Shown here: positions 745-36,690 of the stretch, one piece after another
How positions within the stretch are numbered: position 1 is the first letter of the stretch
Layout of the letters: every line of letters starts with the position of its first letter
NCBI RefSeq assembly: GCF_004010195.1
Contig: NC_057718.1
Location: forward strand, 60,984,073 to 61,025,978
Origin: Chiloscyllium plagiosum
Taxonomy: Eukaryota
DNA length: 41,906 nt
Direction of reading: 5' to 3'
The notes under the pieces: generated by a model
What the model was told of the DNA's origin: nothing
Database searches by the model: none
The model's input: only the letters and a program-made list of their open reading frames with translations
Program-made: the position numbers and the translations under genes

Positions 745-1034
745 TTGATTTGGAGGTGCCAGTGTTGGACTGGGGTGTACAAAGTTAAAAACCACACAAC
801 ACCAGTCTCTAGTCCAACAGGTTTATTTGGAAGCACTAACTTTCGTAGTGCTGCTCCTTCATCAGGTGGTTGTGGATTATAAGATCATAAGTCACAGAAT
901 TTATAGTAAACGTTTGCATCATACTGTAAACCTCTACTATAAATTCTGTGTCTTATACTCCACCTGATGAAGGAGCAGCATTCCGAAAGCTAGTACTTCC
1001 AAATAAACCTGTTGGACTATAACCTGGTGTTATG
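745..1034. mobile_element. Miniature inverted PLE-derived insertion, family A, with hammerhead motifs on both strands
   Basis: 12-bp TSD taaaattacatc at 733-744 and 1035-1046. The left arm is the reverse complement of the right arm. Same family as 6994-7198 and 8627-8801. Confidence 0.85.
961..995 (+). ncRNA. Minimal type I hammerhead ribozyme motif (family A)
   Basis: cac-CTGATGA-A-GGAG(CAGCA)TTCC-GAA-AGCT-A-gta. Core intact, stems slightly decayed. Confidence 0.65.
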
Positions 1035-1466
1035 TAAAATTACATCAGTAGTTACAATTGCTACATACTGTGTCACAATAAATTAATGTTTTGTATGGAA
1101 TATTTAGTTGCATATTGTATGTTAAATTAATGTATATTGTATAATAAGTACAATTGCTTATTGTACATTAAGGTATTGTTATCTTGCAAGTTAGGTCCAG
1201 TTATTATAACACAGAGTAATAACATTTCAGTCTCACAGACTAGTGTGTGGTCAAATATGGTGAGTGATACTGTCACATGGAAATCATGTTCAGAGCATTG
1301 CTTCACATTATCTGGCGATCCGGCATGGCACCCTCTCCACTTGGTATGGCACTGTCTCAGCCTGGTGTGGTAATCTCTTGAGGAGAAAGTGAGGTCTGCA
1401 GATGCTGGAGATCAGAGATGGAAATGTGTTGCTGGAAAAGCGCAGCAGGTCAGGCAGCATCTAGGA

Positions 1467-1504
1467 GAATCGACGTTTCGGGCATTAGCCCTTCTTCAGG
1501 AATG
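1467..1504 (-). ncRNA. Minimal type I hammerhead ribozyme motif (family B)
   Basis: Minus strand reads cattc-CTGAAGA-A-GGGC(TAAT)GCCC-GAA-ACGT-C-gattc. Core and stem II perfect, stem I weak. Confidence 0.7.
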
Positions 1505-1641
1505 AGGAAAGTTGGTCCAGCAGGCTAAGATAAAAGATAGGGAGGAGGGACTTGGGGGAGGGGCGTCGGAAATGTGATAGGTGGAAAGAGGTCAAGGTGA
1601 GGGTGATAGGTCAGACGGGGGTGGGGGCGGAGAGGTCGGGA

Positions 1642-1747
1642 NNNNNNNNNNNNNNNNNNNNNNNNNNNNNNNNNNNNNNNNNNNNNNNNNNNNNNNNNNN
1701 NNNNNNNNNNNNNNNNNNNNNNNNNNNNNNNNNNNNNNNNNNNNNNN
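1642..1747. other. Assembly gap (N run)
   Basis: 106 N inside the PLE insertion. Confidence 1.
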
Positions 1748-2183
1748 GCAGGTTAGGAAGGCGGTGCTGGATTTGATGGATTTGACTGAGACAGGCTGTG
1801 GGGAGGGGAAATGAGGAAACTGGTGGAATCCGAGTTCATCCCTTGTGGTTGGAGGGTTCCTAGCCGGAAGATGAGGCGTTCTTGCGGAGCGTTTCAGGGA
1901 ACACCTCTGGGACACCCGGACCAACCAACCCAACCACCCTGTAGCTCAACATTTCAATTCCCCCTCCCACTCCACCAAGGATATGCAGGTCTTTGGACTC
2001 CTCCATCGTCAGACCACAACAAAACGACGGTTGGAGGAAGAACGCCTCATCTTCCGGCTAGGAACCCTCCAACCACAAGGGATGAACTCGGATTTCACCA
2101 GTTTCCTCATTTCCCCTCCCCCCAGCCTGTCTCAGTCAAATCCATCAAATTCAGCACCGCCTTCCTAACGTGGTAATCTCTTG

Positions 2184-2585
2184 GCCAGGCATGGTGGTCT
2201 TTCAGTGGTACATAGCAGACTTTCAGTCCAGCACAACATCAGCGTCTTCCAGTCTCGAGGTGATTCCTCGAAGTGTGCTCCCACTGTGGCTAAGCGCTTG
2301 AGGCTGTAATATTTGAACTTGCCACTTTATTTCTTTATTTTCCACTTAAGACTTAAGAAGGTTTGCAATGTGTAACTTTTAACCATACCGCATATGTTTT
2401 ATACTATTATTATTGCAATGTTTAACTTTTAACTTTGTTCTTTCTTTCTACATCTTTCTTAAGATGCTGTACCTAGGTACTTGTACCTAAGATGGCACCT
2501 TGAGTGGGGACATTATTCATGTTTCACTATACTCCTGTACTTATGTACTTGAGTACACGTGGCAATAAAATCAAAATCAAAATCA
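2184..2585 (+). mobile_element. Non-LTR retroelement 3' end (family uncertain), probably interrupted upstream by the PLE at 1381-2169
   Basis: Ends in ...gagtacacgtggcAATAAAatcaaaatcaaaatca, a poly(A) signal plus a short tandem tail typical of LINE 3' ends. Confidence 0.5.
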
Positions 2586-4099
2586 CCTCATCAGTGAGCT
2601 ATATGGAGCAAAAATAGTGCTTAGAATCTCACAAGAAGTAGCACTTCAAAACAAATGTGCTTTCTGTGTATATGTGACCAGAGGAATCCTTTACGAGTTT
2701 TGGTTGGGGCACCATTGGTTTGTGAAGGATCCAATTTAAGTAATGGAGTGCATGCCTGTCTGGAATGGTGCCTAACTAATCTGAAAGATATGATGAGCAA
2801 ACTGATGGTGATACTGGATAAATCAGATCCCACAGTGAATTCTAGCTTGATAGATTATAAGGTTTCTTTTAGCAGTTTAGTTACAATTGTGCATAGTCAT
2901 TGATCACAACCACATGAGGCTGTCAATGTCCTTTTAAACAAAAGAAAATAAACAAATATTTATGTATATGATGTATACGATAGATATATACAACAAAAAT
3001 TGAACAAATATTCAACCCTTTTCCCAGCAATATCCTTTACAGGTACTCCATTCTAATGAAGTGTCACCTCTATCTTAACTCTTTAATTTCTTACTCAACT
3101 GACAAGGTTGCCAACATTTTCTTTTGGATTTCTACCTGTTCACCTGATGTGCTTCTCTTCGAACAGTCACACAGACCCAAAACTATGAACAACTCACTTA
3201 CTCTTGCCAATGAATCTTAAGAGAAATTTGAAGATTTTTCCAACACATTTTCTTGGTCTGCTAAATAATCTAAAGAGTTCTTTCCAGCCTGAAGGCTTCA
3301 AAATCTCAATTTCCCTACTGACGATGTGAAACTGTTCTTCTGTGCTGATGTCAGTTTCTGATATCTGACTGTATTTGTAAAAGTTCTACTTGGCAAATCT
3401 ATCATTAATTAACCTCCCAGCTACCTTGCTAGTCACTTAAGTCACATATTTTCTTGGAAACGATGTTTGAGCACACTGTGTTTTAAATTTAAACGCAAAG
3501 TTACCCACACATAACTGATTACTAAAATCCATCTTGCTCTACTTTTCATTTCAAATTCCCAAAATAATAAAAGTATACTACAAACATGTATAACAATAGC
3601 TTGTAACACAGATATAATAAGTCTCTGTACATTTGACAATTTTTTTCGCCAACTTGATTGTGTCCCTTTCTTTCAAAATGTGATTCCTGGAGGAGTGGGG
3701 ACTTTCCTATTTAGATTTATCAGGAGACATCTTCTTCTCTGTCCTGTTTGTAAATCATCCCTCATGTGTTACACTGATTCTTTTTATATTACAGGGGAAA
3801 ATAGTACACAAGTATAAGTAATTGGATTAGAAGTTTTTTTCCCTTTTGATCACAGCATCATGAGATTGTTGTATTTTTATAAAAAATAATTATTATGAAT
3901 ATCTGAATGGTCTTGATCTTCCAGTTTCCAGATATGATTTGAGACCGCTATATAGTTTCAATGCACTGATGATGCATCATTATCCAGGATGTTTAACCTT
4001 CTCCAACAATTAACTGACTTTGGGAACCTCCTGAAAACATCACAGCTGAGTTAGCGTCAGAGGTTTTTTTTTGGGGGGGGTTCAAATTACTTGCACCCC

Positions 4100-4818
4100 A
4101 ATCACTGATACCTATCTCTCCACTCCCCTCAAACATCCAACGACCACCAACCCTGCCCCCAAAATACCAAACAAACACACCTCTTTAACTCCACACAGTT
4201 GACCTCCCGTGACACCTGAATCTACCAAGCTTGCCCCCTTGATACTCAACACTTTCCCACGCCTGAAAATCTGTCCCCCACCCTGAACACATAACCAATT
4301 TCTACCCTCAACACCATCCCACTATCCCCATTGCAATCCTACCTGGACCACACTGCCACCAATACCTGACTCACCTACCAGTGACATGACACCCACCTGC
4401 TACCCCTCAGATTTAACACGTTCCCCATCCTTTCCTCACATCTACTTTGCTGCCACCCTATACTACTGACCTAATTGCCACTCTACCTTCTCACTCCCAA
4501 TCAACACATTGTCCAATCACCCAACTGGCACCCTATCCCCTCACCTATATAACTGATACATTATCTCCACGCCTAACCTTCACTCTACCCTTTAAGAACC
4601 TACTATATACTATCTTCTTTTCCACATGACATGCTATCTGTTTCCACCCTCCCCGTCACAACCACCTTACACCCTCACCCACCCACCTCGCACCTGACTT
4701 AATTAACCACCTATCATTCTACTTCTTCCCCCAACAGCTTTACCCACTTGCCCTCCTAGACCTCAGTTTCCTACCACTCTAAATCCCCTCACCTATGCAC
4801 CTGACCACACCTCCCCTT
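4100..4818. repeat. C/A-rich low-complexity tract
   Basis: Strong C excess and G depletion on the plus strand with recurring ccacc/cacct/ctacc motifs. No coding signal. Confidence 0.6.
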
Positions 4819-6993: not shown

Positions 6994-7198
6994 TTAAAAA
7001 TCACACAATGCCAGGTTATAGTCCAACAGGTTTATTTGGAAGCACTAATTTCGGAGTGCGGCTCCTTCATCAGGTGGTGATGAAGGAGCAGCGCTCCGAA
7101 AGCTAGTGCTTCCAGACAAACCTATTGGACTATAACCTGGTGTTGTGTGATTTTTAACTGTGTACACCCCAGTCCAACACCCGCATCTCCAAGGCATG
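6994..7198. mobile_element. Miniature inverted PLE-derived insertion, family A
   Basis: 12-bp TSD tctggcattgag at 6982-6993 and 7199-7210. Inverted arms meet near 7075, with two partly damaged hammerhead motifs. Confidence 0.9.
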
Positions 7199-7257
7199 TC
7201 TGGCATTGAGATAGATCTTATTGGACTTCTCACATAATTCTAGCATGATTCTCACCA

Positions 7258-7697
7258 CAGCCACAAAAAGACATGATCCACTCTCGCTAGTATCCTTACA
7301 TATAGATAAGGAAGGACACTACTTTGACTGGGACAACACATCCATCCTCGGACAAGCCAAACAGACACACACGAGAATTCCTAGAAGCATGGCATTCCGC
7401 CCAGACCTCTACAAACAAACACATTGATTTGGATCCCATCTATCACCCTCTAAGAAAAAGAACTGGAAATGGCATCACCAACAATGGAAATGACACCAAC
7501 ACAGGAAGTAACATCACCAACCCAAGAAAAGCTAAACACATAAATAGGAAGTGGGCCATAACACTAGTGCTTCACTGGAGGCTCACTGATGATGTTACCT
7601 AGTATGGTGACCAAAGTCTGAAAATGAACCTTCCAGATCAGCTAGCTAACTTACATCCAGAACTTCAACCTGAGCCATAATTCTTCTCCAAACTCAC
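7258..7697 (+). mobile_element. PLE 3' fragment (family D, Penelope/Poseidon-like GIY-YIG C-terminus plus terminal repeat)
   Basis: ATKRHDPLSLVSLHIDKEGHYFDWDNTSILGQAKQ / REFLEAWHS...NKHIDLDPIYHPLRKR, related to 27744-28163. Decayed hammerhead at 7583-7621: tca-CTGATGA-T-GTTACC(TAGTAT)GGTGAC-CAAA-GTC-tga. Confidence 0.85.
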
Positions 7698-7744
7698 ATA
7701 TTGTTCAGGCCACTATAGAATCTCATCCACTGTATCTGAATCTG

Positions 7745-7830: not shown

Positions 7831-8626
7831 TATAATTTTGTGTGAAGGAAATTGTGTCTCACAAACCTGATTGAGTTTTTTGAGGAAGTAACATAAACAT
7901 TGATGAGAGCAGATGTTGTTTATTTGGATTTTAGTAAAGCATTTGATAAGGTTCCACATGGTAAACCAATTCAAAAGTTTGATTACATGGGATTCAGGAT
8001 AAGGGATTGCCCATTGGATACAAAATTGGCTTTATGGGAGGAGATGGAGGGTGATGCTGAAGATTTGTTTTTTGGATTGGAGACCCATGACCAGCCATGT
8101 TCCACAGGGATTGATACTGGTTTCAATTTTTTTTGTCAATTACGTAAATGAGTTGGATGAGAATATAGGAGGCATGGTTCACAAGTTTACAGATGACACC
8201 AAGATTGGGTATTTTGTGGACAGTGATGAAGATTATTTAAGATTACAAAGAGATCTTGATCGAATTGGTCAATGGGCTGAGGAGTGGCAGGTGGAGTTTA
8301 TTTGGATAAATGTGAGGTACTGCATTTTGGTAAAACAGACAAGGGCAAGACATATACAATCAATGGTAGGGTCCTGGGTACTGCTGTAGAACACAGAGAC
8401 CTAGGGGTTCAGTTACATAATTCTTTGAAATTTGTCTCACAGGTAGAGAGGCTGGCAAAGAAAGTGTTTACCAGGCTTGCCTTTATTGCTCAGACCTTGG
8501 AGCATAAAAATTGGGATATCATGTTGAGGTTGTACACGATGTGGTGAGGCCTCTTCTAGAGTAGTGTGTGCAGTTCTGGTTGCCCTGATATAGAAAGGAT
8601 ATTATTAAACTTGTTCAGTAAAGATT

Positions 8627-8801
8627 TAAAAATCACACAACACCAGGTTATAGTCCAACAGGTTTAATTGGAAGCACACTAGCTTTCGGAGCGACGCTCC
8701 TTCATCAGGTGATCACCTTCCAATTAAACTTGTTGGACTATAACCTGGTGCTGTGTGATTTTTAACTTTGTACACCCCAGTCCAACACCGGCATCTCCGA
8801 A
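8627..8801. mobile_element. Miniature inverted PLE-derived insertion, family A, nested in CR1
   Basis: 12-bp TSD tcagtaaagatt at 8615-8626 and 8802-8813, with inverted arms. Confidence 0.92.
8677..8711 (-). ncRNA. Minimal type I hammerhead ribozyme motif (family A), intact
   Basis: Minus strand reads cac-CTGATGA-A-GGAGC(GTC)GCTCC-GAA-AGCT-A-gtg. Confidence 0.75.
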
Positions 8802-9435
8802 TCAGTAAAGATTGACCAGGATGCTTCTGGGATTGGAAGGTTTGAGTTATAAAAAGAGATTGGATAGGTTCTGATTTTTTTCACTAGATCATGGGACGTT
8901 GAGGGGTGACCTATTCAAGTTTATAAGATCATGAGGGGCATAGATAAGGTGACCAGCAAAGATATTTTCCCTAGGGTGAAGAAGTTCAAAACCAGAGGGC
9001 ATATTTTTAAGGTGAGAGAAGGAAAATTTAAAAAGGGCATGAGGGGCAACTTTTTTTACACAGAGTGCGGTTATTTTGTGGAATGAACTGCAAGAAGAAG
9101 TGGTGGATGCAGATATAGTTACAATGTTTAAAAGACATTTGGATAAGTATATCAATGGCAATGGTTTGGAGAGATATAGCCTAAATGCAGACAGTTTGGA
9201 CTAGTTTGGGAACATGGTCTGCATGGATTGGTTGGACCGAAGGATCTGTTTGTATGCTATATGACTCTATGTTGCCTGCAGGAGAGCCATTAGATTATGT
9301 CAAGGTGGTTGCATGCCTTCTGTCAAAGCTGGTCATTTTATTTGGGTATGTAGCCGCATTTGGTGCCAAGCAGATCATTCAAGATCCTGAAAAAATTTGA
9401 TGCTGTAGAGGCGCAAAGTTCCAGAGTAACTTTAT

Positions 9436-9700: not shown

Positions 9701-11793
9701 TTGTTAAAACATTAATGTTTGCCTGTCCTAAATTAGCATCCACATGTCCATGAGGATTTGGCCTCACAATAATTCTCCCAATCAAAGAGCTGGAGAATGC
9801 AATTTATAAATATTGCAAACGTTGATCAGAATTGTATGCAGAGAAATCTGCAATACCTGACCAACAAGTCACATTGCAATAGCATTTCAATCGTCATCAT
9901 GGTGAAAACGCAATTTTAAGAATAGGTTCTTGCACTTTTAAAACCTTTCATGGATATGCAAATCTGATTATTGCATTTCAATACTGAGATGCTTTGGATT
10001 TATCTCTTATTAAATTCTTCAGTCTGTTCCTGACACTGTTTGAACAGAGATAATCTTGCCTTTGAATCAATCTAGATGCAGCCAATAAGGTACGAAAAAT
10101 ACTCACACGTATTCAAAGGGATTTGAAAATTGTATTTGAAGTTTGCAAAATGTTAAGAAGTGGGGGTGAAGTCTGTACAACAATATTGTTTGCAACTTGT
10201 AAATTACACCATTTCAACAATATCTGTTTTGTAGGTTTCACTGCCAACCAGCATCAATGGACCCGATGACGTCCCACATGGTGCAATTTCAATTCAACTG
10301 TTTAACGGGTGGAAGAGTTAATTGACCATGGCACGTAGCTACAGCCAGTGAGGGAAGAAAAATGGAATGTAGTGGTATTAGAGGACAGCACTTTGATGGG
10401 GTTAGACATTGCTCTGTGCAGCCAAGAGCATGAGTCCAGAAAGTTTTGTTGTCCATCCATTGCCAGATTTTGGGACATCGATTCAGGACTGAACAGAAAC
10501 TTGGACTGAGAGGCAAAGGATCCAGATGTCCTGGTCCAAAGAGATAACAACAACATAGGTAGGACTAGGAAAGAAGTTCTACTTTGACAGAATGAGGAAC
10601 TATGCAGTATATTGAATAGTAGCTAATAACCTCTGGATTATTTTCTGAACCAGTTTCCACTTCACAGGACACTAGCACCAATACTGGGAAAAATAGGAGC
10701 TGCATCATTGGGAGGTCTATACTTGAATCATGCAAGGACCAGTGCCATAGCATATAACCTGGGATGTACAAAGGCTTTAGCCGAAACAAGCCAGGATAAA
10801 AATGACAAATCAAAGGATACAGTCAAGGCAGGAGGCGTAATTTATAATGGGAAATGAAGATCAGAGAATGGCAGATAGGAACAGTGAGAAAAAACCCAAG
10901 ACACCCAACAGTCAAGATTGGATGTTACAAGGATAAAAAAGAAAAAAGTTCTATATCTGAATGTATGCAACATTCATTAGAAAGTAAACTGATAGTGTGC
11001 ATTGTTACAATTAAGTGTGATCTGATAGTTATTATGGAGACAAGGTGGCAATGATGACAGTAATTGGATCCTGAAATTGAGGGAGATATGACATTCAAGT
11101 GGAGTAGGAAGCTAGGTAAAGATGGAGAGGTGGACCCACTAATTTAAGATGGCACTAGTACAATAGTTTAAAAATGACCCTGATACAGGAGATCAGAATT
11201 TAAAATCAGTTTGGGTGTAGGTGAGGAATAATAAGGAAAAGAAGCCACAAGTGGAATTGCTCAACAGACTCTTTAACAGTAATCAAAATGTAGAATAAAT
11301 GTTACAAAAAAAAAATTGGGTGTTTGTGATAAACAGATGGCAACAATCATGGGTGATTTTATTTGATACATAAACTGGAAAAAGTAGATTGGCAATATAG
11401 TCTAAATGAAGAGTTCATAGCTTTGTGTTTGAGATAATTTTGTAGAACAGCATGTTCTGGAACCAAGCAGTGAGCAGTGTATATTAAATCTGGTGTGTAA
11501 TGTGACAGGATTAATTAAAGACCTCAAAATAAAGGTATCCCATGGAGCAGTGACCACAATAAGAGTGAATTTTACAATTAGCTTGATAGGGAAAGAATGC
11601 ATTTAAGGTTATAATTTTAAACTTAAGTAAAGACAACAATGTGAGCTAGCTGAAGAGAACCAAGATATATTTCAGAATACTCAGTATATTTTCACTACAA
11701 GAATAAATTCTAAGGGGAGGACCTATCATCCATAGTTAACCAAATATGTTAAGAATAGCATCCAAAATGAATATAGTTGTGTGCAATAGGTCA

Positions 11794-11940
11794 ATTGATT
11801 AGTGTGGTGCTGGAAAAGCACAGCAGGTCAGGCAGAATCCAAAGAGCAGCCTGCTCCTCAGATGCTGCCTGACCTGCTGTGCTTTTCCAGTGCCACACTC
11901 TCGACTCTGATCTCCAGCATCAGCAGTCCTCACTTTCTCC
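11794..11940. mobile_element. Miniature inverted PLE-derived insertion, family B-like, hammerhead part absent
   Basis: 7-bp TSD taggtca at 11787-11793 and 11941-11947. Hairpin arms ~11802-11848 and ~11851-11898. Ends in cagtcctcactttctcc like the other family B copies. Confidence 0.85.
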
Positions 11941-12199
11941 TAGGTCAGATGATTAGGTTGATTATAAAGAATTAAGAGTATTAAGAAAAGACTAATCAGG
12001 AGAAATACATTGAAGTAGGATTGTAAAACAGATGTTAAGAGTTTTCACAGTATTTAAAAAGGAAAAGAGTAAGTGAAGTGAGCATTGGTTCTCTGGAAAG
12101 TGAGAATGCAAAATTAATATCTATATGAAGGAAACGATGGATGAAATGCACAAATATTTTATTTCTGGCACCATAATAATTTAACAAAAAGTATTCCAG

Positions 12200-12370
12200 A
12201 TAAAAACCTAAAGAACTGTAAATCAGAAACAGAAGTTACCAGAAAATCTCAGCAGGTGTGGCAGCATTTGTGAAGAAAAATCAAAGTTAATGCTTCAGGT
12301 CTGGTAACCCTTCCTCGGTTGGGGCTGAGGGGTTCTGAGGAAGGGTCACCAGGCACAAGATATTAATTGC
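12200..12370. mobile_element. Decayed inverted PLE terminal repeat, family E
   Basis: Similar to the termini of 20443-23248. Contains an inverted pair, ggtaacccttcctcgg and CTGAGGAAGGGTCACC, which are decayed hammerhead starts. Confidence 0.65.
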
Positions 12371-12569
12371 TTTGGCAGGAAGAATATAAAGAAACAGTAT
12401 TGTTTAAATGGTGAGTCACAAAATGTTCGTTTGAAAGCACAGCAAGTAATTACAAAGGCTAATGGAGTTCTATTCTTTGTTAAGAGAAGATGTAAATATT
12501 AAAGTAAGGATGTAAGGCTTCAGATACATTGGACATTGTGAGTTCCACAGCTCTGTAAGGAGGTGAATT

Positions 12570-14172: not shown

Positions 14173-14227
14173 TTAATCAAGACTGTTGGGCAGCCTATCC
14201 AATTACTGCCATTTGTTTTCATGTATA

Positions 14228-14542
14228 TTAGATTACTTAGATTACTTACAGTGTGGAAACAGGCCCTTCGGCCCAACAAGTCTACACCGACCCGCCGAAG
14301 CGCAACCCACCCATACCCCTACATTTACCCCCTTTAACCTAACACTATGGGCAATTTAGCATGGCCAATTCACCTAACCCGCACATCTTTGTGACTGTGG
14401 GAGGAAACCGGAGCACCCGGAGGAAACCCACGCAGACACGGGGAGAATGTGCAAACTCCACACAGTCAGTCGCCTGAGTCGGGAATTGAACCCGGGTCTC
14501 TGGCGCTGTGAGGCAGCAGTGCTAACCACTGTGCCACCGTGC
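14228..14542 (-). mobile_element. HE1-type tRNA-derived V-SINE, near full length
   Basis: Minus strand has A box TGGCACAGTGG, B box GGTTCAATTCC and V-domain tgtgtggagtttgcacattctccccgtgtctgcgtgggtttcctccgggtgctccggtttcctccc. The CR1-like tail ends in repeated gtaatctaa. Confidence 0.95.
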
Positions 14543-18118: not shown

Positions 18119-18745
18119 GTCATAGAGTCATAGAGATGTACAGCAGGGAAACAGACCCTTTGGTCCAACCCATCCATGCCGACCAGATATCCCAACCTGA
18201 TCTAGTCCCACCTGCCAGCACCCAGCCCATATCCCTCCAAACCCTGCCTATTCATATACCCATCCAAATGCCTCTTAAATGTTGCAATTGAACCAGCCTC
18301 CATCACTTCCTCTGGCAGCTCATTCCATACACGTATCACCCCTCTGTGTGAAAAGGTTGCCCCTCAGGTCTCTTTTATATCTTTCCTCTCTCACCTTAAA
18401 CCTATGCCCTCTAGTTCTGGACTCCCTGACCCCAGGGAAAAAACTTTGTCTATTTACCTTATCCATGCTCCTCATAATTTTTAAAACTCTATAAGATCAC
18501 TCCTCAGCCTCCGACGCTCCAGGGAAAACAGCTCCAGCCTGTTCAGCCTCTCCCTATAGCTCAAATCCTCAAACCTTGGCAACATTCCTGTAAATCTTTT
18601 CTGAACCCTTTCAAGTTTCACAACATCTTTCCAATAGGAAGGAGACCAGACTTGCACGCAATATTCCAACAGTGACCTAACCAATGTCATGTACAACCGC
18701 AACATGACCTCCCAACTCCTGTACTCAAAATTCTGACCAATAAAA
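18119..18745 (-). mobile_element. CR1 (HER1-like) LINE 3' fragment
   Basis: FEYRSWEVMLRLYMTLVRSLLEYCVQVWSP...LERVQKRFTGMLP...LERRRLRSDLIE, plus a (ctctatga)n tail. Confidence 0.95.
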
Positions 18746-20127
18746 GAGTCCTGTTTGTTGAAACCTTGCTGTTCACTTCTATGTCTCGCTGGCATAGATA
18801 TCAGTTGGCGCTGCAGGAGATGTACAGAGTCGCAGTTTCACTGCCAGGTTGGTGGCGTTAGATGCCCATACCATGAGTCATTGAAAAACTAAAGTACTTT
18901 GCTGATTCTTCTATAGATGTCAATCTCTACATTTACCTCCCTAAAGTTACTGCTTCCTAGATAGGAGAAGAGGTCGACATTGCTGATGTTGTTATCTGAT
19001 GATATTGGGTGGGCCTTGTCACCATCCAGTCATAATTACTTTGGTTGGTTCACAGCTCTTGGGCAGGAAAATGTTAGCACTGATACTCTCAAGATTGGTG
19101 GTGATTTCTTGGAGCAGGTGTGTTTTTCCATCCAGTGAGACAATGCCTGCAAATTCAGGCTATCAACCAGTGATGTTGCCACCCGTTGCCAAAGTTTGTC
19201 CCCACCATTACCATCCTATACTGAAATCAATTAGTAAAAGAATGAGGAATGGCGAGAAAATGCAATCATGTGATACTCCTGAGATGCCATTGAAGGAGTC
19301 CATGGTGCCCTTGCTGGTCTTGGCACACCCGCTGGAGTACCAGTTATAAGGATTACAGACATTCAGAAATTTTGTTTGGAAATGACCTACTTTTGATTGC
19401 ATGTTACTTTTTACAGATGGAAAGTTTGAAGGGTTATCAAGCTGATCAGATTATACATGGCGGTTTATCTCATTGATCTCACCTGAAAACAACACGAGTA
19501 CCCTAAATATTGATGACAGTGAAGGTCTATCCTTACGTGTGTTTATTGTTTATTTTAGGCTTTAATAAATTCACTCACTCACTGTTTTCTTTGCTGCTTT
19601 AAAGTTCTTACTAAAACACCAAAAAAAAGTAGGCAAATGGTTACTCTTACTATTGGTCTGAAGTGTGCACTATCCTGAAGATCTGGGTACCATGCTAATG
19701 CCTGGAAAGGCACCCACTGCTAATTGGTTTCTAAGGAGTTAGCCCTCATCACCTAGGTAACCAAGGCCTACCTTCAGCTGCAAGAAATCATGGCCATTTT
19801 TTTTAAAAAATGTAGAAAAAGTAACATGTACTGATCTGACTGTATAAGGGGTCAGTTTTGAAGAAATGAGGTTCAAGACAAATATCGAAGATGTATCAGG
19901 TCATTTTATTCAGGCAAGAACACTTCCCTTTCCAGACGAGTGCCTTGACATGTTCTGTGTTGAATGTTTTTTTTAACTAGATCACAGGAGTATCAAGACA
20001 TAGTCATAGTGCCAAATATTTGACATCATTACCACAGTGGAAGGTTAAGGAATACAAAGTTAATCCTCCTCCACCTCCACAAACCATCTGCAAAACACTT
20101 ACAAAACGACAACATAAAAAAAAAACT

Positions 20128-20442: not shown

Positions 20443-23248
20443 CAAAAACAGAAGTTGCTGGAAAAGCTCAGTAGGTTTGGTAGCAGAGAAATCACAGTTA
20501 AGGTTTCCAGTCCAGTGACCTTTCTCAGAACTGATAGTAACGAGGAAAGTGTCAATTTATATGTAGAAGATAGGTTGGGGGACGGGGTAGGGAGTAAACA
20601 ATAGGTAAGAATAGAGCCCAAAGAGACAGAAGAACAGTTGGACAGACAAAGGAGTTGATAACAATCCAGCTGGGAGGGTGAATAACTGTTAATGGAGATT
20701 GCTGGTGGCTAACAATAGGTAGTGTGTAATGGCAGATTATGTGATAACAAGACCTGATGTGTATGGTAGGGGGCTAGGACATGGGGGAGTTCAGGCCCTA
20801 AAATTATTGAACTCAAAATTGAGTCCGGAGGGCTGCAGGGTCCCCGAACAGAAGTGGTTCTTCCAGTTTGTACTGAGCTTCATTGGAGCACTGTAACAAG
20901 CCTTAGACAATGATGTTGGCGAGGGAACAGGGTGGTGTGTTAAAGTGGCAGGCAACTGGAAACGCAGGGTCTTTTATAGCAGGCAGATCGTAGATATTCT
21001 GCAAAGTGTTCACCCAGTCTACACTTCATTTCCCCAATGTAGCAGAGACCACATTGTGAGCAGCGAATGCAGTAGACTAGATTGTAGGAAGTGCAGGTAA
21101 ATTGCTGCTTCACCTGGAAGGTATGTTTGGGCCCTCAGATGTTGAGGAAGGAGGATGTAATTGGGCAGATGTTAAACCTTTGATGCTTGCAGTGCAAGGT
21201 GCCATGGGGCTGTGCGGGGGGGAGGTGGGGTTCAGTGTTGGGACTGAAGGAATAGAAGACCACGGTGTCCCGGAGGGAATGGTCCCTGCAGAAAGCAGGC
21301 AAGAGAGGATAGATGAATATTATTCCTGGTGGTGGCATCTCACTGGAGGTGGCAGAAATAGCAGCTGATGGTCTTCTGGAAGTGGACGCTGGTGCAGCAC
21401 CAATGATATCATCGATATATCAGAGGAAGATTTGCAGGTAGGGTCCAGAATAGGACTGGAACAAGGAATGTTCCATGTCCCCCATGAAGAGACTAACTGG
21501 GGCCCATGTGAATACTCATGGCCACCCGTCTGACTTGAAGAAAATGAAAGGAAGCTTTTGAGGGTGAGGACATGCTCAGTCAAGTGGAGGAGGGTGGTAG
21601 TGGTGGGTGGGGAGAGTTCAGGCCTTCGCTCCAGGAAGAAGCAGAGAACCCTGAGACTATCCTGGTGGCGGATGGGTATGAAAGGGATTGCATGTCCATG
21701 GTAAAGAGGAGGTGCTTGGAGCCTCCAAATTGGAAATTCCGAAACTGGTATAAAATGTCAGAGGAGTTATATAGACAGGGACTGGAGCAGGGGAAAAGGG
21801 ACTGAGTCAAGGTAGGAAGGGATGAGTTCTGTGGGGCAGGAGCAGGCAGAAACAATGCATTTTGCCCAGGCTGTCCTGTTTGTGGCTTTTTGGAAGGAGG
21901 TAGAAGCGAGCTGTGTGGGACTGGGTGACCATAGGCTTGGTGGCAGTGGAAGGGGAAATCATCAAAAGAAATGAGATCAGTGACTCTCATTGATACATGT
22001 GCCATGGTAGAGTCATGTTCCAGGGGGAGATAGGAGGAGGTAACTGTGGATTCCCCAACACCATTGTCTACAGGGTCCACAACCAGTTCTGACCCATCTC
22101 CCACATTTCCATCCTCACCCCCTCACTTCCCTCCCACAACAGCAATGGGGTTCCCCTTGTCCTTACCTACCATCCCACCAGCATCCTCAACCAGAAGATC
22201 ATCAGTTGTCATTTCCGCCATGTCCAGCAAGATATTACCACAGATACGTATTCCTCTCCCCTCCCTTGTCCGCCTTCCGCAGAGATCATTCCCTCCGGCA
22301 CACGCTGGTCCACTCTTTTTTCACTCCCAACATTCCTCCACAGCCCCTCAGCATCTTCCACTGCAACTACCCATTTACTTCCTCCCTCCACAATATCCGA
22401 GGGCCCAAGCATACCTTCCAGGTGAAGCAACGCTTTACCTGCTCTTCACTCAATCTAGAGGAGAAAGGGAAGAACTGTTTGTTGAAGAAGGGCTTATGCC
22501 CGAAACGTCGATTCTCCTGTTCCCTGGATGCTGCCTGACCTGCTGCGCTTTTCCAGCAACACATTTTCAGCCCTTCACTCAATCGAGTTGACTGCATTCA
22601 CTGCTCACAATGTGGTCTCGTCAACATTAGGGAAATGAAGCATAGACTGGGTGACCACTGTTCAGAACATTTACATTCTGCCTGCAAAAAAGACACTGAG
22701 CTTCCAGTTGCCTGCCATTTAACACACCGCACTTTTCCTTGGCAAACATCTCTGTCTCAGGCTTGCTGCAGTGTTCCAGTGACGCTCAGCGCAAGCTGGA
22801 ATAACGACACCTCATTTTCCAATTGGAGACCCTGCAGCCCTCCGGACTCAATATCAAGTTCAATAATTTTAGGGCCTGATCTCCCCCATATCCTAGCCCC
22901 CTACCACGCACACCAGGCTTTGTTATCATATCATCCACCGTTACACACTACCTATTGTCAGCCATTAACAGTCTCCATTAAAAGTTATTCACCCTCCCAG
23001 CCAGATCATTATTGATTCTTTTGTCTGACCAACTGTTCTTCTCTTTCACTGGGCTCTATCCCTACCTGTCGTTTACTCCCTAACTGCTCCTCCACCCTAT
23101 CTTCTGCATATAAGCCAACATTTTTCTAGCTAGACCCAAACTTTAGTTTTGATTTCTCTTCACAGATGCTGACAGACTTGCTGGGCTTTTCCATCAACTT
23201 TATTTTTGTTTCTGATTTACAACATCCGCAGTTTTTTTGGTTTTTAGT
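20443..23248. mobile_element. Large decayed PLE (family E, Neptune-like) with long inverted arms
   Basis: 11-bp TSD tatgtcttaat at 20432-20442 and 23249-23259. The minus arm has RT motifs LLFTMDMQSL, VAMSIHMGPS and YIDD (21408-21419). The plus arm has GIY-YIG-like CIHCSQCGLVNIREMKHRLGDHCSEH...PVACH. Positions ~20443-21340 are an inverted, diverged copy of ~22200-23210. Confidence 0.9.
22459..22572 (+). mobile_element. Miniature family B insertion nested in the family E PLE
   Basis: TSD cttcactcaatc(t/g)ag at 22444-22458 and 22573-22587. Carries tTGAAGA-A-GGGC(TTAT)GCCC-GAAACGTC, with core C3 lost. Confidence 0.88.
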
Positions 23249-23769: not shown

Positions 23770-24077
23770 ATTAGATTCCCTACAGTGTGGAAACAGGCCA
23801 TTTGGCCCAACCAGTCCACACCAACTGTCTGAAGTGTAACCCCCCCCAGACCCATTTCCCTCTGACTAATGCACCTAACACTATGGGCAATTTAGCATGG
23901 CCAATTCACCTGACCTGCACAACTTTGGATTGTGGGAGGAAACCAGAGCACCCGGAGGAAACCCACACAGATGGCGGGGGGAGCACGCAAACTCCACACT
24001 GACAGTCAACTGAGACTGGAATCGAACCTGGGTCCCTGGCGCTGTGAGGCAGCAGTGCTAGCCACTGAGCCACCATC
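23770..24077 (-). mobile_element. HE1-type V-SINE
   Basis: A box TGGCTCAGTGG, B box GGTTCGATTCC, V-domain and CR1-like tail. Homologous to 14228-14542. Confidence 0.93.
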
Positions 24078-27000: not shown

Positions 27001-27215
27001 AACTGATGTATTTTTTACGTCACTGAAGGCAGTGGCGTTCTCCACTGTCCTTTGTAATCAGTTCTTGTTAAAATTACAAATGGCACTTGCAAAAGAACTC
27101 ATTTATGAATGATCTTGCTAATTAAAGAATATAATAAGACCTAAAGTTTGTGCAAAGATTTGTAGCTCGGGTACTCGTTGCTGTGGTTCTGTTCGCCGAG
27201 CTGGAAGTTTTTGTT

Positions 27216-27255
27216 GCAAACGTTTCGTCCCCTGGCTAGGCAACATCATCAGTGC
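27216..27255 (-). ncRNA. Minimal type I hammerhead ribozyme motif (family C), intact
   Basis: Minus strand reads gca-CTGATGA-T-GTTGCCT(AGCC)AGGGGAC-GAA-ACGT-T-tgc. Confidence 0.7.
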
Positions 27256-27419
27256 TTGGGAGCCTCCTGCGAAGCGCTTCTTTGATGTTTCCTCCGGTGT
27301 TTATAGTGGTCTGTCCCTGCCGCTTCTGGTTGTCAGTTTCAGCTGTCCGCTCTAGTGGTTGGTATATTGGGTCCAGGTCGAATGGAGTTTGTGGATGGAT
27401 GCCATACCTCTAGAAATTC

Positions 27420-28163
27420 CACAAACCAAGCTGCATCAGGACACTATTCAAAAGGGCCACAACACACTGCAGTACACCAGAACTGCAAAAAGAAGAAGAG
27501 GAACACCTATACAAGGTATTCGCCAAAAACGGATACCCGCGCAACTTCATCAACAGATGCCTAAGAGAAAGACCACAGAACGAGGACATACCACAACCAA
27601 AAGGACTAGCCACATTACCATACATCAGGAGCATCTCGGAACTGACAGCCAGACTACTGCGACCCCTAGGACACATAACGGCACACAAACCAACAGCCAC
27701 GCTCAGACAACAACTCACCAGAACGAAGGACACGATACCCAACATGAGCAAGACGAATGTAATGTACAAAATACCATGCAAGGACTGCACAAAACACTAT
27801 ATAGGACAAACAGGAAGACAGCTAACAATCCACATACATGAACATCAACTAGCCACGAAACGACACGACCAACTATCCTTAGTAGCCACACACGCAGACA
27901 ACAAGCAACATGAATTCAACTGGGACAACACTACTATCATAGGACAAGCCAGACAGAGAACAGCCAGGGAATTCCTAGAGGCATGGCATTCATCCACAAA
28001 CTCCATCAACAAACACATAGACCTGGACCCAATATACCAACCACTACAGCGGACAGCTGAAACTGACAACCGGAAGCGGCAGGGACAGACCACCATAAAC
28101 ACTGAAGGAAACATCAAAGAAGCGCTTCGCAGCAGGCTCCCAAGCACTGATGATGTCGCCTAG
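27420..28163 (+). CDS. 5'-truncated PLE ORF: RT C-terminal region plus GIY-YIG endonuclease
   Basis: Stop-free frame of 248 codons including the stop: HKPSCIRTLFKRATTHCSTPE...KNGYP...LPYI...NVMYKIPCKDCTKHYIGQTGRQL..HIHEH...REFLEAWHS...STDDVA*. Confidence 0.9.
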   Translation, partial: HKPSCIRTLFKRATTHCSTPELQKEEEEHLYKVFAKNGYPRNFINRCLRERPQNEDIPQPKGLATLPYIRSISELTARLLRPLGHITAHKPTATLRQQLTRTKDTIPNMSKTNVMYKIPCKDCTKHYIGQTGRQLTIHIHEHQLATKRHDQLSLVATHADNKQHEFNWDNTTIIGQARQRTAREFLEAWHSSTNSINKHIDLDPIYQPLQRTAETDNRKRQGQTTINTEGNIKEALRSRLPSTDDVA

Positions 28164-28176
28164 CCAAGGGACGAAA
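28144..28176 (+). ncRNA. Hammerhead motif (family C), cut off by the gap
   Basis: gca-CTGATGA-T-GTCGCCTAGCCAAGGGAC-GAAA then N. Overlaps the ORF stop codon. Confidence 0.6.
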
Positions 28177-28410
28177 NNNNNNNNNNNNNNNNNNNNNNNN
28201 NNNNNNNNNNNNNNNNNNNNNNNNNNNNNNNNNNNNNNNNNNNNNNNNNNNNNNNNNNNNNNNNNNNNNNNNNNNNNNNNNNNNNNNNNNNNNNNNNNNN
28301 NNNNNNNNNNNNNNNNNNNNNNNNNNNNNNNNNNNNNNNNNNNNNNNNNNNNNNNNNNNNNNNNNNNNNNNNNNNNNNNNNNNNNNNNNNNNNNNNNNNN
28401 NNNNNNNNNN
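28177..28410. other. Assembly gap (N run)
   Basis: 234 N. Confidence 1.
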
Positions 28411-28736
28411 ACGGCTAACAATCCGCATACATGAACATCAACTAGCCACGAAACGACACGACCAGCTATCCTTAGTAGCCACACACGCAGACAACAAGCA
28501 ACATGAATTCGACTGGGACAACACTACTATCATAGGGCAAGCCAGACAGAGAACAGCCAGGGAATTCCTAGAGGCATGGCATTCATCCACAAACTCCATC
28601 AACAAACACATCGACCTGGACCCAATATACCAACCACTAGAGCGGACAGCTGAAACTGACAACCGGAAGCGGCAGGGACAGACCACTATAAACACCGGAG
28701 GAAACATCAAAGAAGCGCTTCGCAGGAGGCTCCCAA

Positions 28737-28776
28737 GCACTGATGATGTTGCCTAGCTAGGGGATGAAACATTTGC
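28737..28776 (+). ncRNA. Hammerhead motif (family C), CpG-decayed
   Basis: gca-CTGATGA-T-GTTGCCTAGCTAGGGGAT-GAA-ACAT-T-tgc. The ACGT palindrome has become ACAT. Confidence 0.5.
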
Positions 28777-29374
28777 AACAAAAACTTCCAGCTCGGCGAA
28801 CAGAACCACAGCATAATAAGACCTAACTTTCTCAAATGTGCTGTCAATGAGCATTGCCATTAGACATCTCTAAAGAAGCAATATGTTGAAAATAACAATG
28901 ATTGCATGTTTACTGATCTTTTACAGTGCAGATAATTGACTATTTAGCTACAGAATGGGGTTTTAAAAACTTTGTCATATACTTGAATATGTTGAGCAAA
29001 TAGCATCAGATTTTTCCATTAAAAATTAAAAGGGTGGAACTTTTATTAGTCCCTAAAATCCATGGACTGTCTTTCCAGTCATTAAGTGGTCAATGTGAAG
29101 GCACCTGCTATACATGGGGTTGAGGCACCCACATAACCAGAATGTTCCTCAATGTTGCCATGTGCCTCATGTTGCTGAGAGAAACTACATCGGGGGATGG
29201 GGTATAAATCACCCCACTTATGCCCTACTACGAAGAGACAGAAAAAGAAACATTTTAAAACTTCACCTGGCAGTGCAAGCACACTCACTCATGGAGGGTA
29301 ACATACTTTGAGTGAATGTATGAGCTTTCAGTCTAATGCCAAGACACTGATAGGGTTTTGTCAAAGTATTTCAA

Positions 29375-32197: not shown

Positions 32198-32234
32198 ATT
32201 CCTGAAGAAGGGCTTATGCCCGAAACGTCGATTC
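32198..32234 (+). ncRNA. Minimal type I hammerhead ribozyme motif (family B), intact core
   Basis: attc-CTGAAGA-A-GGGC(TTAT)GCCC-GAA-ACGT-C-gattc. Confidence 0.72.
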
Positions 32235-32327
32235 TCCTGCTCCTCGGATGCTGCCTGGCCTGCTGTATTTTTCCAGCACCACATTTTTCAACTCTGGTCT
32301 CCAGCATCTGCAGTCCTCACTTTCTCC
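32198..32327 (+). mobile_element. Miniature family B insertion (130 bp), non-inverted
   Basis: 13-bp TSD tatttatgtctgt at 32185-32197 and 32328-32340. Confidence 0.93.
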
Positions 32328-33149
32328 TATTTATGTCTGTGTCCATGCTTTACAGATTTTATTATAGTTAAAAAAGAACTATTGGAAATTAATTTAATAA
32401 ATACACCAAATGATAAAGAGAGTGTACATTATGATAACAGATAATTAACAGTATGGACGTATTGCCCAAAAAATTGCCCCCAAAATGTTGGAGAATAATA
32501 CTGCAGAGTGTAATGTCTCTTTAAGTGACCAGGCAGCAACGAGGACTTTGTTTAATTGATACAGTTAGGGTCTTTGAACACAGCAATTGGTTATATAAAT
32601 ATTCCAGACAAAATCATTTGCTGTGGAAGTAGATGGGGCCACAACAGTGCATTTTTGTGAACACCTTATCAAATACCATAAGGGAAATGGAAAGCAATAT
32701 AGAGGCAACTGGAAATCCCATTGTAGCAAAGAGAAGGACGTCATTAAGATGAACACCCTGGAAGAGAGATGGAAATTAATTAAACACTCAAGTAAAAGCA
32801 AAATATTGCTCGGCTTTAAATATGATTTTAAAAAAAGCAGGAAGCATTAGAAAAACTCAGCAGATTTTGCAGGGAGTGAACAGAGAGAGATAGAGACAGA
32901 GTTATGCATACAATAAGACTGTTCATGGGGATTTGATGTAAAGTTGCCATTGATGATGCTCCAATTTTACTCCATGTAGCTTTCAACTGAAGTTCCATCC
33001 TTCATGTTTCCAATCACCCATAACAGCTATCTCTGAGACGTACAAAATTTCTCAGATAGCAGTTTTCACTGCAACCTGAAATCCACACTCAGTGCCATGC
33101 ACAGCCATACACACACACATGACCTCACATTCAAGCTACAACTTAGTTC

Positions 33150-33270
33150 ATCTTATTGGACTCAAACTGTTAACTCTTTTTGTCACTCCCCAAATATTGC
33201 CAGACTTGCTAACGTTAAATGGCATTTCTTACTTTTATTTCAGATTTCCAGCATCCAGAATTTTTTACTT
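33150..33270 (+). mobile_element. Old PLE-terminus-like fragment
   Basis: gttaactct...gccagacttgct...ttttatttcagatttccagcatc resembles 23140-23248. Similar remnants lie at 32830-32905 (minus) and 36225-36345 (plus). Confidence 0.5.
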
Positions 33271-34694
33271 CTGTATCATGCAAATAGCCCTAAGAAAACA
33301 ACATTTCAATAAAATAAATCTAAAATTCCTGTGTTATATATTGAAAACCAAATGTGGTTAAATTTACATGAATATTTGTTGAGTTTCTCATTGTGAAGGA
33401 ACCCATGTTTCTAAACCTCATAGCTCCACAGTATCATATTTATTAACAAGCTGGACAACAGCCAAGTCATTGTGGAGCCTGCTGGTAAGCTAATGAAGTC
33501 ACAGTAGACTATTCCTTGTTGCTAACATTACCATTTGCTATGCTAATGATGTCATATTGGGTCCCTTTTTGAATTTGCTATGAGGTTATACCCTGCCTGA
33601 GTTGGTAGGACATTGATGTAAGTAAATGACAACAATTTTAATATGTTATGCTAACTGTTACTAAAATCTGGATTTATTGAAATTGAAACTATTCCGATCA
33701 CTTAATAATTATTCCATTTCCTCCACCATTAGGTTAGGGCATTGTGACAAAACTGTTAGGCATCAGGGACACATTACTGAGGTGATGGTATTCAAATGCA
33801 CTGAAGCAATACCGATTTTATTCAACAGCTTTAGTTCCAAAGCTAAGGTGGAAAAACAGCAAGCTAGCCGGCATTGACCTGGCTGCAGCCAGGGGTGAAG
33901 ACATAACTCAAACTGATTAAAGCAAGCTTTCTTTTGCAGACTGATATTTATAGCATAATATGAACATGGCTGGCATTGCCATCCATTCTTGAGAAGTTAA
34001 ATATAAATTGTACTGAAGCCAGAAATGTGTAAATTTGAGAATAGTGTCTGGCAAACCTGAAAAATTCCAGGAATATTAATTGCTCATTTTAGTCCTTTAG
34101 TGGGAAATAATATGGCTGCAATGATTAATTAGTTAACTCATAACTTTTTAACTGGTTTCAACTGCCCATTGGTCTTAATAAAAACAATAGTTTCTTGTCA
34201 ACTTCAATAATGAAATACATTCTACACCTATGAAAAACTTAGGAGAACCATCTTTCAAACTCTGAGGTCATTTCAACACACTGGCATCGTTAATTTCTAA
34301 TTTGAGTATTAAATTCATAGATGGTCATTTTTAACTTGAGAAGACAGTGCAAAATGGATGAAATAGAATGAGTCATCAATTTGCTTTGCCCTGTTTTCAC
34401 TCATTTTGTTGCATGTTTTGGCATATATATTAATACCCACTACAATCCTACTATTGTGAGATTTTAATTGTGTTCTGGCAGTTCTGGCTCCCAGTTCATG
34501 ACTCAGAACTAAACGTACTAATGTCCTTGCAGTATTCCAGTGGTTACTACAAAGCATCTCAAATGCTGAAGCAGGATCTGCTTTCATTATATAGCTACAT
34601 TCATTGGAGTGGAATTACAGTGACTATTTTAAAATATTATTTGTTACATTTCAGAAGTTATAAATTTACAATTCTTTTCTCTGGGTGGGATGCC

Positions 34695-34760
34695 GCACAG
34701 AGGGTCGGTCTGGACTTGATGGGCTGAATGGCCTGCTTCCACACTGTAGGAATTCTATGG
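34695..34760 (+). mobile_element. HE1/CR1-type 3' tail fragment
   Basis: ggacttgatgggctgaatggcctgcttccacactgtaggaattcta matches the tail of the SINE at 23770-23830. Confidence 0.8.
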
Positions 34761-36480
34761 TACTTTAATTTTTCCCTCCTTTTTAATCTTTTTAATAATT
34801 CTTTGTTTATGTATATATAGGGCAATTATATGCCTTTACTTTAAGTTTGATATTAACTTTGACTTTTCTAGTTAACCATGGTTAGTAAGATCGTCCCTCA
34901 GAATTTTTCTTATATTGCCATGTATTTATTCTACATTTTCCAACATGTTGGAAAAGTAGTCAGCTTTCTGGCTGGGAAACCAGGACATCTTGCCTGCCGG
35001 TTTGAAGGTGTGCCTCCATTCGCCAATCTGGGGCCAACTGAAGAAAGAATGAGGTGGCAAGTGGGTGGTCACTGAAGGAAACCTCCCTGCCCTTGCCTCC
35101 AACTACTCTGATCCCACCTCTCCCCCTAACCCTGTGTGTATGAGACCTGAAAATAAAGCACTAGCCTTCTTTCTGTTTCCGTACCAAAAGCCTGGTACTC
35201 CAACCATTGTAATGTAGAACCCAGAAGCCTCTCATTAGCTGGCGGCTTCAGGCAGTATCAGGCAGAGCTTGTGATATGCTGAGAAACTTGCTGAGAAGCT
35301 TTGTTGCTGGATCTATGGAGATCCAATTCCTCACATTCAATGCATATAAGTCCAATAGTCACTTCCCTATTCCTAAAAATCAAATATTGTAATCACGTTC
35401 ACTCTCCAGGAACATTCACTGAATAGTAATCTAGAACTATGATGTCTTTACCTTTACGTAATCAAGAGTAAGAACCATGCTTCATTGTTATTTATGTCTC
35501 CATGGTTTACTTTGGCACCTCACTGATAACCTAGCTGAGATTATCTCACTCATTGTAAACCATAGACTGGAGGTGTAGTTTTCTTAATTTGTGAGCCTCA
35601 CTATCATACATTGTGGTAAATTAGCCTGTCTAAAGATAGGTGTAATTAAAAAGCTAGTGCAAGGTTTGCCACAACCGAGTTGGCAAACTCTGGAAGGTCT
35701 CTCGTTGCAACTATCAAAAGCATTATCACTTCTATAAGCTATTCCTTTTAATAGTCTCTAAATAGCAGTGCAAATCATATGCATTATATTGATTTTAAAG
35801 AAAATTGGGGTTTAGCAAAGACAGGAGCTGATTAAACATGGCACTTGGCTAACAGACTGGGTGGGGCTAGGTTATTGAGCAATTTAGTGCTTTGTCAACG
35901 GAACCTGAATCAATGTGGTTTAAAACTGAAAAGTCTAAAGGTTAACAACTACCAGAAGTTTCAACAACCCAGTTATCAGCTTTTATTATAGCAATGCAAT
36001 GCACTGCATAGCACAAAGATTAAAGGTCACCCTGTGACTTTAATAACAAGGTAAAATGTACAATATAACATTGAAGTTCACCAACGAGAGAAATGGAACA
36101 ACCTTGATATGCAGGGCTGAGTTTAGTTACATTCTTGTTCTGAATATAAAGGTTCTTCCACTCTTTAGAATATCTGTTAAAGACCTTGAACAGTATTAGG
36201 TTAGTTCGCCAGGTGTTCAATTGAAAGGTTATTGAATCCAAAACATTAACTCTTTCTCTCTCCATCGATCCTGCTGAGCTTCTTCAGCACTTTTAGTTTT
36301 TATTTCAGATTTCTAGCATTCACAGTACTTTATTTTTATTTCAAACCTGTTGGATGAAATCGAATAAGTTGCTAGCTGGTGAAGTGAAATAAAAGATTTT
36401 AAATGTCTCCAGGGAGAGAACTTACTTTGAAAATGTCAGTACACATCGAAGGGAATTGAGTTGGTTTCTACATGTGGTAG

Positions 36481-36690
36481 GAGAAAGTGAGGACTGCAGA
36501 TGCTGGAGATCAGAGCTGAAAATGTGTTGCTAGAAAAGCGCAGCAGGTCAGGCAGCATCCAAGGAACAGGAGAATCGACGTTTCGGGCATAAGCTCTTCC
36601 TGAAGAAGGGCTTATTTCCCGAAACGTCGATTCTCCTGTTCCTTGGATGCTGCCTGACCTGCTGCGCTTTTCCAGCAACACATTTTCAGC
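36481..36690. mobile_element. Miniature inverted family B insertion (near-perfect hairpin)
   Basis: 15-bp TSD ttctacatgtggtag at 36466-36480 and 36691-36705. Arms ~36515-36594 and ~36610-36690. Plus-strand hammerhead core CTGAAGA-A-GGG(CTTATTT)CCC-GAAACGTC at 36600-36628. Confidence 0.95.

Follow-up and report, generated by a model that had tools for sequence, protein, structure and literature searches.

Short inverted inserts at a hammerhead-bearing terminal repeat in Chiloscyllium plagiosum, probably stubs of ordinary Penelope-like retrotransposition

The stretch of Chiloscyllium plagiosum DNA analysed here (41,906 nucleotides, contig NC_057718.1, positions 60,984,073 to 61,025,978; hereafter the window) is repeat-rich vertebrate DNA that carries seven short non-coding inserts related to Penelope-like elements (PLEs), together with longer PLE copies. 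A preliminary description had assigned each of the seven its own target-site duplication (TSD) of 7-15 bp, and all seven were recovered where it had placed them, with exact flanking direct repeats of 12, 12, 12, 7, 12, 13 and 15 bp (Table 1). Among about 5000 random intervals of the same sizes, direct repeats of at least 7 bp occurred at a frequency of 0.003 and repeats of at least 10 bp never. Three of these mini inserts, starting at 745, 6994 and 8627, belong to one family (A) and four, starting at 11794, 22459, 32198 and 36481, to another (B). Five had been described as inverted-arm hairpins; the inverted arms are real, and the number rises to six two-armed inserts of the seven, since 22459-22572 is also two-armed. 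A2, A3, B1 and B4 fold as hairpins (z = -11.6 to -18.1), and the inserts at 22459 and 32198 show no hairpin fold (z of 0.08 and -2.1, respectively); A1 was outside the folding set, and its inverted arms were seen by sequence comparison. Neither insert length (114-290 bp) nor TSD length (7-15 bp) is uniform, unlike in MITEs (miniature transposable elements with inverted repeats).

Both families contain a minimal type I hammerhead ribozyme motif with a palindromic stem III, as recognized by a motif scan and from the published description of such motifs (PMC4209133, in the portion available). Self-cleavage in families A and B is putative, the motif being its basis, and minimal hammerhead motifs cleave poorly in vitro (PMC4209133). 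An Rfam search at E<=1 returned no hammerhead match; its five matches were microRNA-precursor models below the gathering score, restricted to two hairpins, and were set aside as hairpin artefacts. In a perfect hairpin, the hammerhead core is base-paired to its own complement.

To describe the inserts, all arms were aligned in the hammerhead sense and positions were counted from the predicted cut. The outer ends are fixed at two sites approximately 37 nt apart (+53 and ~+90 in family A, ~+62 and +99 in family B), and the inner ends vary. The arms are placed head to head, with a tail of ~37 nt at one end only in both families; each of the six two-armed mini inserts combines one tail arm with one tail-less arm, the tail arm of B2 being a stub of 15-19 nt. 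One arm is thus ~37 nt longer at the terminus, and the symmetric terminal inverted repeats of the MITE type are not seen. Both tail-less ends sit at ATTT motifs. Neither arm is contained within its partner in five of the six two-armed mini inserts, and the arms of B2 do not overlap at all. The tail-less arm extends further 5' in 7/8 inserts, namely five of the six mini inserts and the larger copies C and D (sign test ~0.07, by hand); this count omits the larger copy B0, whose second arm is non-standard and stops at the edge of a gap, and the stub at 12201-12370, which has no TSD. The two outer ends correspond to the two reverse transcription (RT) start sites mapped in vitro for PAc, the Poseidon element of Anolis carolinensis (PMC11167929).

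Coding PLE copies of 0.8-2.8 kb in the window are bounded by the same kind of outer ends and TSDs as the mini inserts. One of them, B0, spans the hammerhead and the 3' untranslated region up to the GIY-YIG C-terminus and so links the terminal repeat of family B to a GIY-YIG open reading frame (ORF). The peptide encoded at 1884-2126 had 770 matches at E<=0.001; of seven matches scanned, six carried GIY-YIG and four also RVT_1. One match (P0118) has a Cys-rich linker between the reverse transcriptase and endonuclease (EN) domains, which is a Neptune/Nematis trait (PMC8557442), and the parent of family B is Neptune-like. Pfam searches with four window fragments gave no match for any of them. The second arm of B0 (1884-2169) stops well upstream of the tail-less site, and the sequence at which it stops also forms the edge of the N gap at 1748; it may reflect a third priming site or a misassembly. 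In family C, an open frame on the minus strand (27145-27260) runs from the hammerhead core/stem II through the tail, as in PAc. An older family D two-armed stub at 12201-12370 also has its junction at the hammerhead core and has a short right arm. Decayed PLE-like ends and a GIY-YIG-like fragment were noted at 7259-7680, 32829-32900, 33160-33270 and 36223-36330 (by eye, some by BLAST).

Table 1. Mini inserts, their arms, associated RNA motifs and larger PLE copies in the window. Numbers with a sign are positions relative to the predicted cut.
Feature	Coordinates (strand)	Arms or structure	TSD	Remarks
A1, family A, two-armed	745..1034		12 bp (733-744, 1035-1046)	junction located by hand from variant letters
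A1 tail arm	745-914	reversed; 5' end ~-78
A1 tail-less arm	from ~916	forward; 5' end ~-90		internal deletions
Family A minimal type I hammerhead motif	964..995 (+)	CUGAUGA core, stem II, GAAA, palindromic stem III		predicted cut 992/993; motif scan
Family A AATAAA and poly(A) addition site	1002..1022 (+)	AATAAA at +10..+15; addition site at ~+27..+30		followed by GU/U-rich tract
B0, long family B copy	1381..2169	same tail end; inversion 1883/1884	14 bp	contains N gap
A2	6994..7198	tail-less arm reversed (-34); tail arm forward from 7078 (-28)	12 bp, exact
A3	8627..8801	tail-less arm reversed (-32); tail arm forward from 8717 (+4)	12 bp	private ATTAAA variant common to both arms
B1	11794..11940	tail-less arm reversed (+8); tail arm forward from 11850 (+7)	7 bp	no hammerhead core
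D, older Neptune-like two-armed copy	20443..23248	tail-less arm in reverse orientation, extending into RT-like coding sequence; forward tail arm	11 bp
B2	22459..22572	tail stub in reverse orientation (+85..+99), followed by forward tail-less arm from 22483 (-27)	12 bp, exact	nested within endonuclease-coding part of D
C, Poseidon-like coding copy	27145..28812	short tail arm in reverse orientation (27145-27381), followed by tail-less partial tandem in forward orientation	14 bp
B3	32198..32327 (+)	single tail-bearing arm, start -30..-32	13 bp	arm starts directly at TSD
B4	36481..36690	tail arm reversed (-23); tail-less arm forward from 36597 (-31)	15 bp	3-nt microhomology at junction

The 13 arm 5' ends of the mini inserts lie at -90, -78, -34, -32, -32, -31, -28, -27, -23, +4, +7, +8 and +85. 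Seven of them fall at -34..-23, which is the upstream edge of the core, and three at +4..+8, just 3' of the cut. Seven ends within 12 nt gave P values of 0.0002-0.03 across eight nulls in which the size filter (110-290 bp) was modelled; the more conservative count of at least five of seven inserts with ends in one 12-nt window gave 0.010-0.026 when the arms were treated as independent and 0.086-0.121 when they were coupled. Taken alone, the window is suggestive of clustering, not conclusive. All these ends adjoin TSDs or partner arms and are therefore true breaks. The clustering at the hammerhead that had been described earlier is confirmed in this sense, and its place is shifted: the breakpoints listed then are at the 5' edge of the core and not at the cut, and the one insert left out of that list (11794-11940) breaks at +7/+8, close to the cut. 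Of the accompanying proposal, that the structure or cleavage of the ribozyme sets the RT stop, the part on cleavage fails for the main cluster, because those arms pass through the cut site and the whole core; the minor cluster at +4..+8 alone could reflect cleavage. Furthermore, B2 (-27) and B3 (-32) stop without a partner arm at that point, so that palindromy of the junction is not the cause and the stop is a property of the template or the enzyme. The stop hotspot is probably real and located mainly upstream of the core.

Additional evidence came from public runs with the same species label that were mapped on positions 700-1621: X1 (130,423 contigs; possibly the source of the window itself), X5 (101,478 contigs) and X21 (7071 RNA reads from a poly(A) single-cell library, which cannot show transcription starts or capture circles). 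The X1 and X5 counts are incomplete. In family B, the depth of the first 31-nt bin upstream of the core relative to the core bin was 0.36 (X1), 0.33 (X5) and 0.25 (X21), compared with 0.58-1.26 for the other bin-to-bin ratios, and depth changed slowly further upstream. Both contig runs place the tail ends 746 and 1381 within the six leading loose ends listed, and the flanks of these ends are heterogeneous (in X1, 1877 contigs for 746 and 1366 for 1381). Of the 15 joints listed out of 958, four were dropped, two of them (791/1031 and 805/1018) as linear copies hopping between the arms of the reference hairpin and two (746/1381 and 1031>1422) as cross-family. Of the 11 non-artefact family A joints that remained, five reach +1..+8 at one end, and most show an end at approximately -24 to -49; mismatches in the reference (877, 995) and its deletion near 956 can shift all these positions by a few bases. 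Breakpoints are therefore non-uniform, as first suggested, in the window arm ends, in the family B depth step and in the top family A joints.

No two of the six two-arm junctions in the window are alike, even those of B2 and B4, whose arms are 96.7% identical. Among the 15 joints listed none is dominant, the strongest X1 joint having a depth of 328 against ~0.6-1.3 million on family A arms (<0.1% of family depth). Some junction words do recur in contigs: 860>965 in one X1 contig at a depth of 69 (8.7 for unique DNA) and 873>996 in five contigs. Because coverage of X5 is uneven, its high joint depths were left out of the evidence for recurrence. As a separate observation, the joint 746/1381 sets the tail end of family A against that of family B on opposite strands in 18 X1 contigs, and 1031>1422 joins A to B in six contigs; the AT-rich ends of one PLE family may serve as targets for another, or an amplified composite may be involved.

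An A/T tract at family A +27..+30 was present in 1464 of the 7071 RNA reads (885 at 810 and 579 at 1022). Family A copies carry a functional poly(A) site, at which transcripts of the host or of the element can end. This site lies upstream of both outer ends of the family (+53 and ~+90). If the element RNA ends at it, RT can start only in the 5' copy of the repeat, and it would soon meet the RNA 5' end.

We consider it probable that the mini inserts are PLE stubs with a real stop hotspot, in which the junction is made anew at each insertion. They are the shortest products of normal retrotransposition by EN-containing (EN+) PLEs, a known kind of insertion and not a new class. The independently mobilized retrozyme- or MITE-like class envisaged in the preliminary description is not borne out: the six junctions all differ, coding copies have the same ends and TSDs, and hammerhead tandems are absent (the head-to-tail tandem is a retrozyme trait, and none of the four tandem arrays in the window carries a hammerhead).

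A PLE protein cuts both target strands, and the two internal RNA sites at which it starts RT delimit the tail (PMC11167929). In the mechanism we propose, both target DNA ends would prime on one RNA. The first cDNA would start at the tail-less site; the second would start at the tail site, displace the first and usually stop earlier, and the two cDNA ends would be joined via 0-3 nt of microhomology or short fillers. One-RNA priming with strand displacement would explain both the longer tail-less arm and the variant shared by the two arms of A3, and we see the chances of such twin priming as about even. The RT start sites would lie in the 5' leader of the transcript, RT would meet the RNA 5' end after ~90-130 nt, and by running off just upstream of the hammerhead core it would leave a strong-stop-like cDNA. 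For longer copies, the template would have to be a read-through tandem RNA or a circle, or RT would have to jump between templates. The ends at +4..+8 may arise on cleaved RNA or through stalling at the foot of helix I. That the main cluster is caused by the RNA 5' end is, in our judgement, about as likely as not. Two simpler schemes were rejected: fold-back of the target-primed cDNA as such, since the arms are not nested, and a spliced exon upstream of helix I, since the copies have no common sequence 5' of the break.

Several observations weigh against this account. Only 13 ends were measured exactly, and the per-insert statistic is not significant with coupled arms (0.09-0.12); A1 (-78/-90), B0, C and D break elsewhere. 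Upstream subfamily divergence can mimic the family B depth drop, which is also distorted by a 7-nt deletion of B0 at 1462, and in none of the runs do the six listed loose ends include a position near 1500. At 876, the RNA loose end (516 reads) appears to be variant upstream sequence and not a break. No transcription start or RNA-end pile-up is listed in X21, a type of library that cannot show starts. The polyadenylated reads run past -40, so they are not short RNAs of -34..+30, and they may be host transcripts. No ORF is attached to family A within the window. Finally, the start in D. virilis precedes a 75-nt intron by 46 nt (PMC2377424), and the end of this intron maps to helix I (PMC4209133), which means that a start at the hammerhead edge is not universal.

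With regard to the stop itself, the alternative is that RT stalls at a folded or protein-bound hammerhead and that the RNA continues upstream, which is possible but which we hold to be somewhat unlikely. A helix would be expected to stall RT at its 3' foot. The ends at +4..+8, at the foot of helix I, fit this expectation (three of the 13 window ends, and the five of 11 listed family A joints at +1..+8), whereas the larger cluster falls past both helix II and the core, where the structure has already been copied through. The PAc hammerhead is protein-assisted (PMC11167929), in keeping with a stall.

With regard to the arms, self-primed fold-back with endonuclease trimming remains the main rival to one-RNA twin priming, unlikely as we judge it to be. 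Here the cDNA from the tail site would fold back on itself, the endonuclease would trim the tail of the first strand, and the hairpin would integrate. Fold-back predicts the same asymmetry, a longer tail-less arm, and the same sharing of private variants; both tail-less ends sit at ATTT motifs, comparable to the ATT cut motif (PMC11167929), the A3 junction is a short palindrome, self-priming from junction palindromes has been proposed (PMC3846280), and the tail has been ascribed to endonuclease resolution (PMC8557442). On the other hand, target-primed starts at both sites on both strands were seen directly in vitro (PMC11167929), B3 is single-armed with a clean TSD, and complementarity at most junctions is just 0-3 nt.

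A more doubtful proposition is non-autonomous re-amplification, in which the unit would not be the hairpin but a single hammerhead-headed unit of ~120-130 nt, transcribed from dispersed copies and re-inserted by PLE proteins in the manner of short interspersed elements (SINEs). Such a unit contains both RT start sites, the 3' pseudo-LTR (long terminal repeat) of Penelope includes an internal promoter (PMC2377424), the copy number is very high (the X1 contigs above), and non-autonomous PLE derivatives are known, namely MRC1 (PMC8557442) and retrozymes (bioRxiv 10.64898/2026.07.22.740005). However, B2 and B4 have diagnostic letters in common with the long coding copy B0, the family A poly(A) site would strip both RT start sites from processed transcripts, and no mini-only subfamily is shown.

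Still less credence is due to ordinary random 5' truncation, with the clustering produced by the choice of 115-290-bp inserts and by upstream subfamily divergence. It would accommodate the variant upstream sequence at 876 and the finding that six of seven inserts end within -36..+8, for which P is 0.13-0.29 with coupled arms, and it is at odds with the seven ends in 12 nt, improbable under all eight nulls, with the sharp depth step in three runs and with the window ends being true breaks. That the hairpins are MITE-like or retrozyme-like elements mobilized as wholes is highly improbable, because the recurring junction words on which this view could draw are expected at a narrow hotspot in so large a family, while the differing junctions, the asymmetric termini, TSDs of 7-15 bp, the lack of any listed joint above ~0.1% of family depth, the lack of a hammerhead tandem and a core paired to its own complement all speak against it.

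A bolder extension of our preferred reading, which we put forward as speculative and rather unlikely, is that PLEs replicate by a retrovirus-like strong-stop step. The transcript would be terminally redundant over an R-like segment containing the hammerhead (approximately -34 to +30), and RT, starting in the 5' leader, would have to jump to the 3' repeat or use a circle made by the hammerhead. The mini inserts would then be failed jumps, their ends at -34..-23 marking the intact RNA 5' end and those at +1..+8 recording hammerhead cleavage in vivo. A literature search, with most subscription journals outside its reach, found nothing on clustering of PLE truncations at the hammerhead, and within the same reach the term "strong-stop" appeared in none of the papers listed. 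The papers cited here leave open what the PLE hammerhead does and how the inverted-copy-plus-tail structure arises; many two-armed stubs in a genome would be a direct record of RT starts and stops, making both questions testable by counting. The stubs, if transcribed, form strong hairpins and could affect host RNAs, as could the family A poly(A) site.

A pattern scan gave no matches in viral contigs and, with a longer pattern, none in metagenomes; matches to a shorter pattern (81 metagenome and 67 genome stretches) were discarded as chance, just one of the 148 loci aligning over at least 40 nt (44 nt). Other repeats in the window include decayed fragments of long interspersed element (LINE)-like sequence, which we take to be CR1/L2-like, at 7850-9250, 10900-12500, 18120-18760, 39780-40370 and 41623-41906, and such fragments are the hosts of A3 and B1. 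Two copies of a SINE-like repeat (14237-14540 and 23771-24074) are 82-84% identical, and two 207-bp tandem copies at 41159-41572 (99% identity) represent a recent duplication or an assembly artefact.

Among known systems, L1 twin priming and retroviral minus-strand strong-stop DNA offer parallels in how they work: in the former two target ends are primed on one RNA, and in the latter RT starts near the RNA 5' end. L1 twin priming inverts without duplicating, whereas here the arms overlap to give a hairpin, and there is neither a tRNA primer nor a true LTR. Non-LTR retrozymes are likewise non-coding, with a type I hammerhead, PLE-related sequence and larger TSDs (PMC7229834; bioRxiv 10.64898/2026.07.22.740005), but as described in the available portions of these sources they form head-to-tail tandems with mostly canonical hammerheads and circular RNA, in contrast to the head-to-head or single arms and minimal motifs seen here. 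The minimal hammerheads of truncated PLEs have the same type I motif and palindromic stem III, and pairs on opposite strands ~100-700 bp apart were already noted; TSDs, tails and breakpoints are not dissected in the available text (PMC4209133).

PAc shares the two RT start sites bounding the tail, as well as the cutting and extension of both strands, and uncleaved RNA is its main template (PMC11167929). That work, as far as its accessible part goes, is an in vitro study of starts in which cDNA stops and two-armed products are not mapped, and the family B parent is Neptune-like. A further comparison is with the insertions of EN+ PLEs (Penelope/Poseidon, Neptune). The mini inserts differ from them in that both arms are just 15-170 nt long, there is no ORF and the 5' ends pile up at the hammerhead; neither the pile-up nor the asymmetry in arm length is described as a rule in the portions available of PMC8557442 and PMC3846280. 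Typical EN+ insertions consist of a 5'-truncated copy, an adjacent inverted copy and a tail of 30-40 bp (PMC8557442, PMC3846280), and the mini inserts resemble them in their head-to-head inverted arms, a tail at one end, a hammerhead in the terminal repeat and TSDs of similar length (8-10 bp in PMC3846280).

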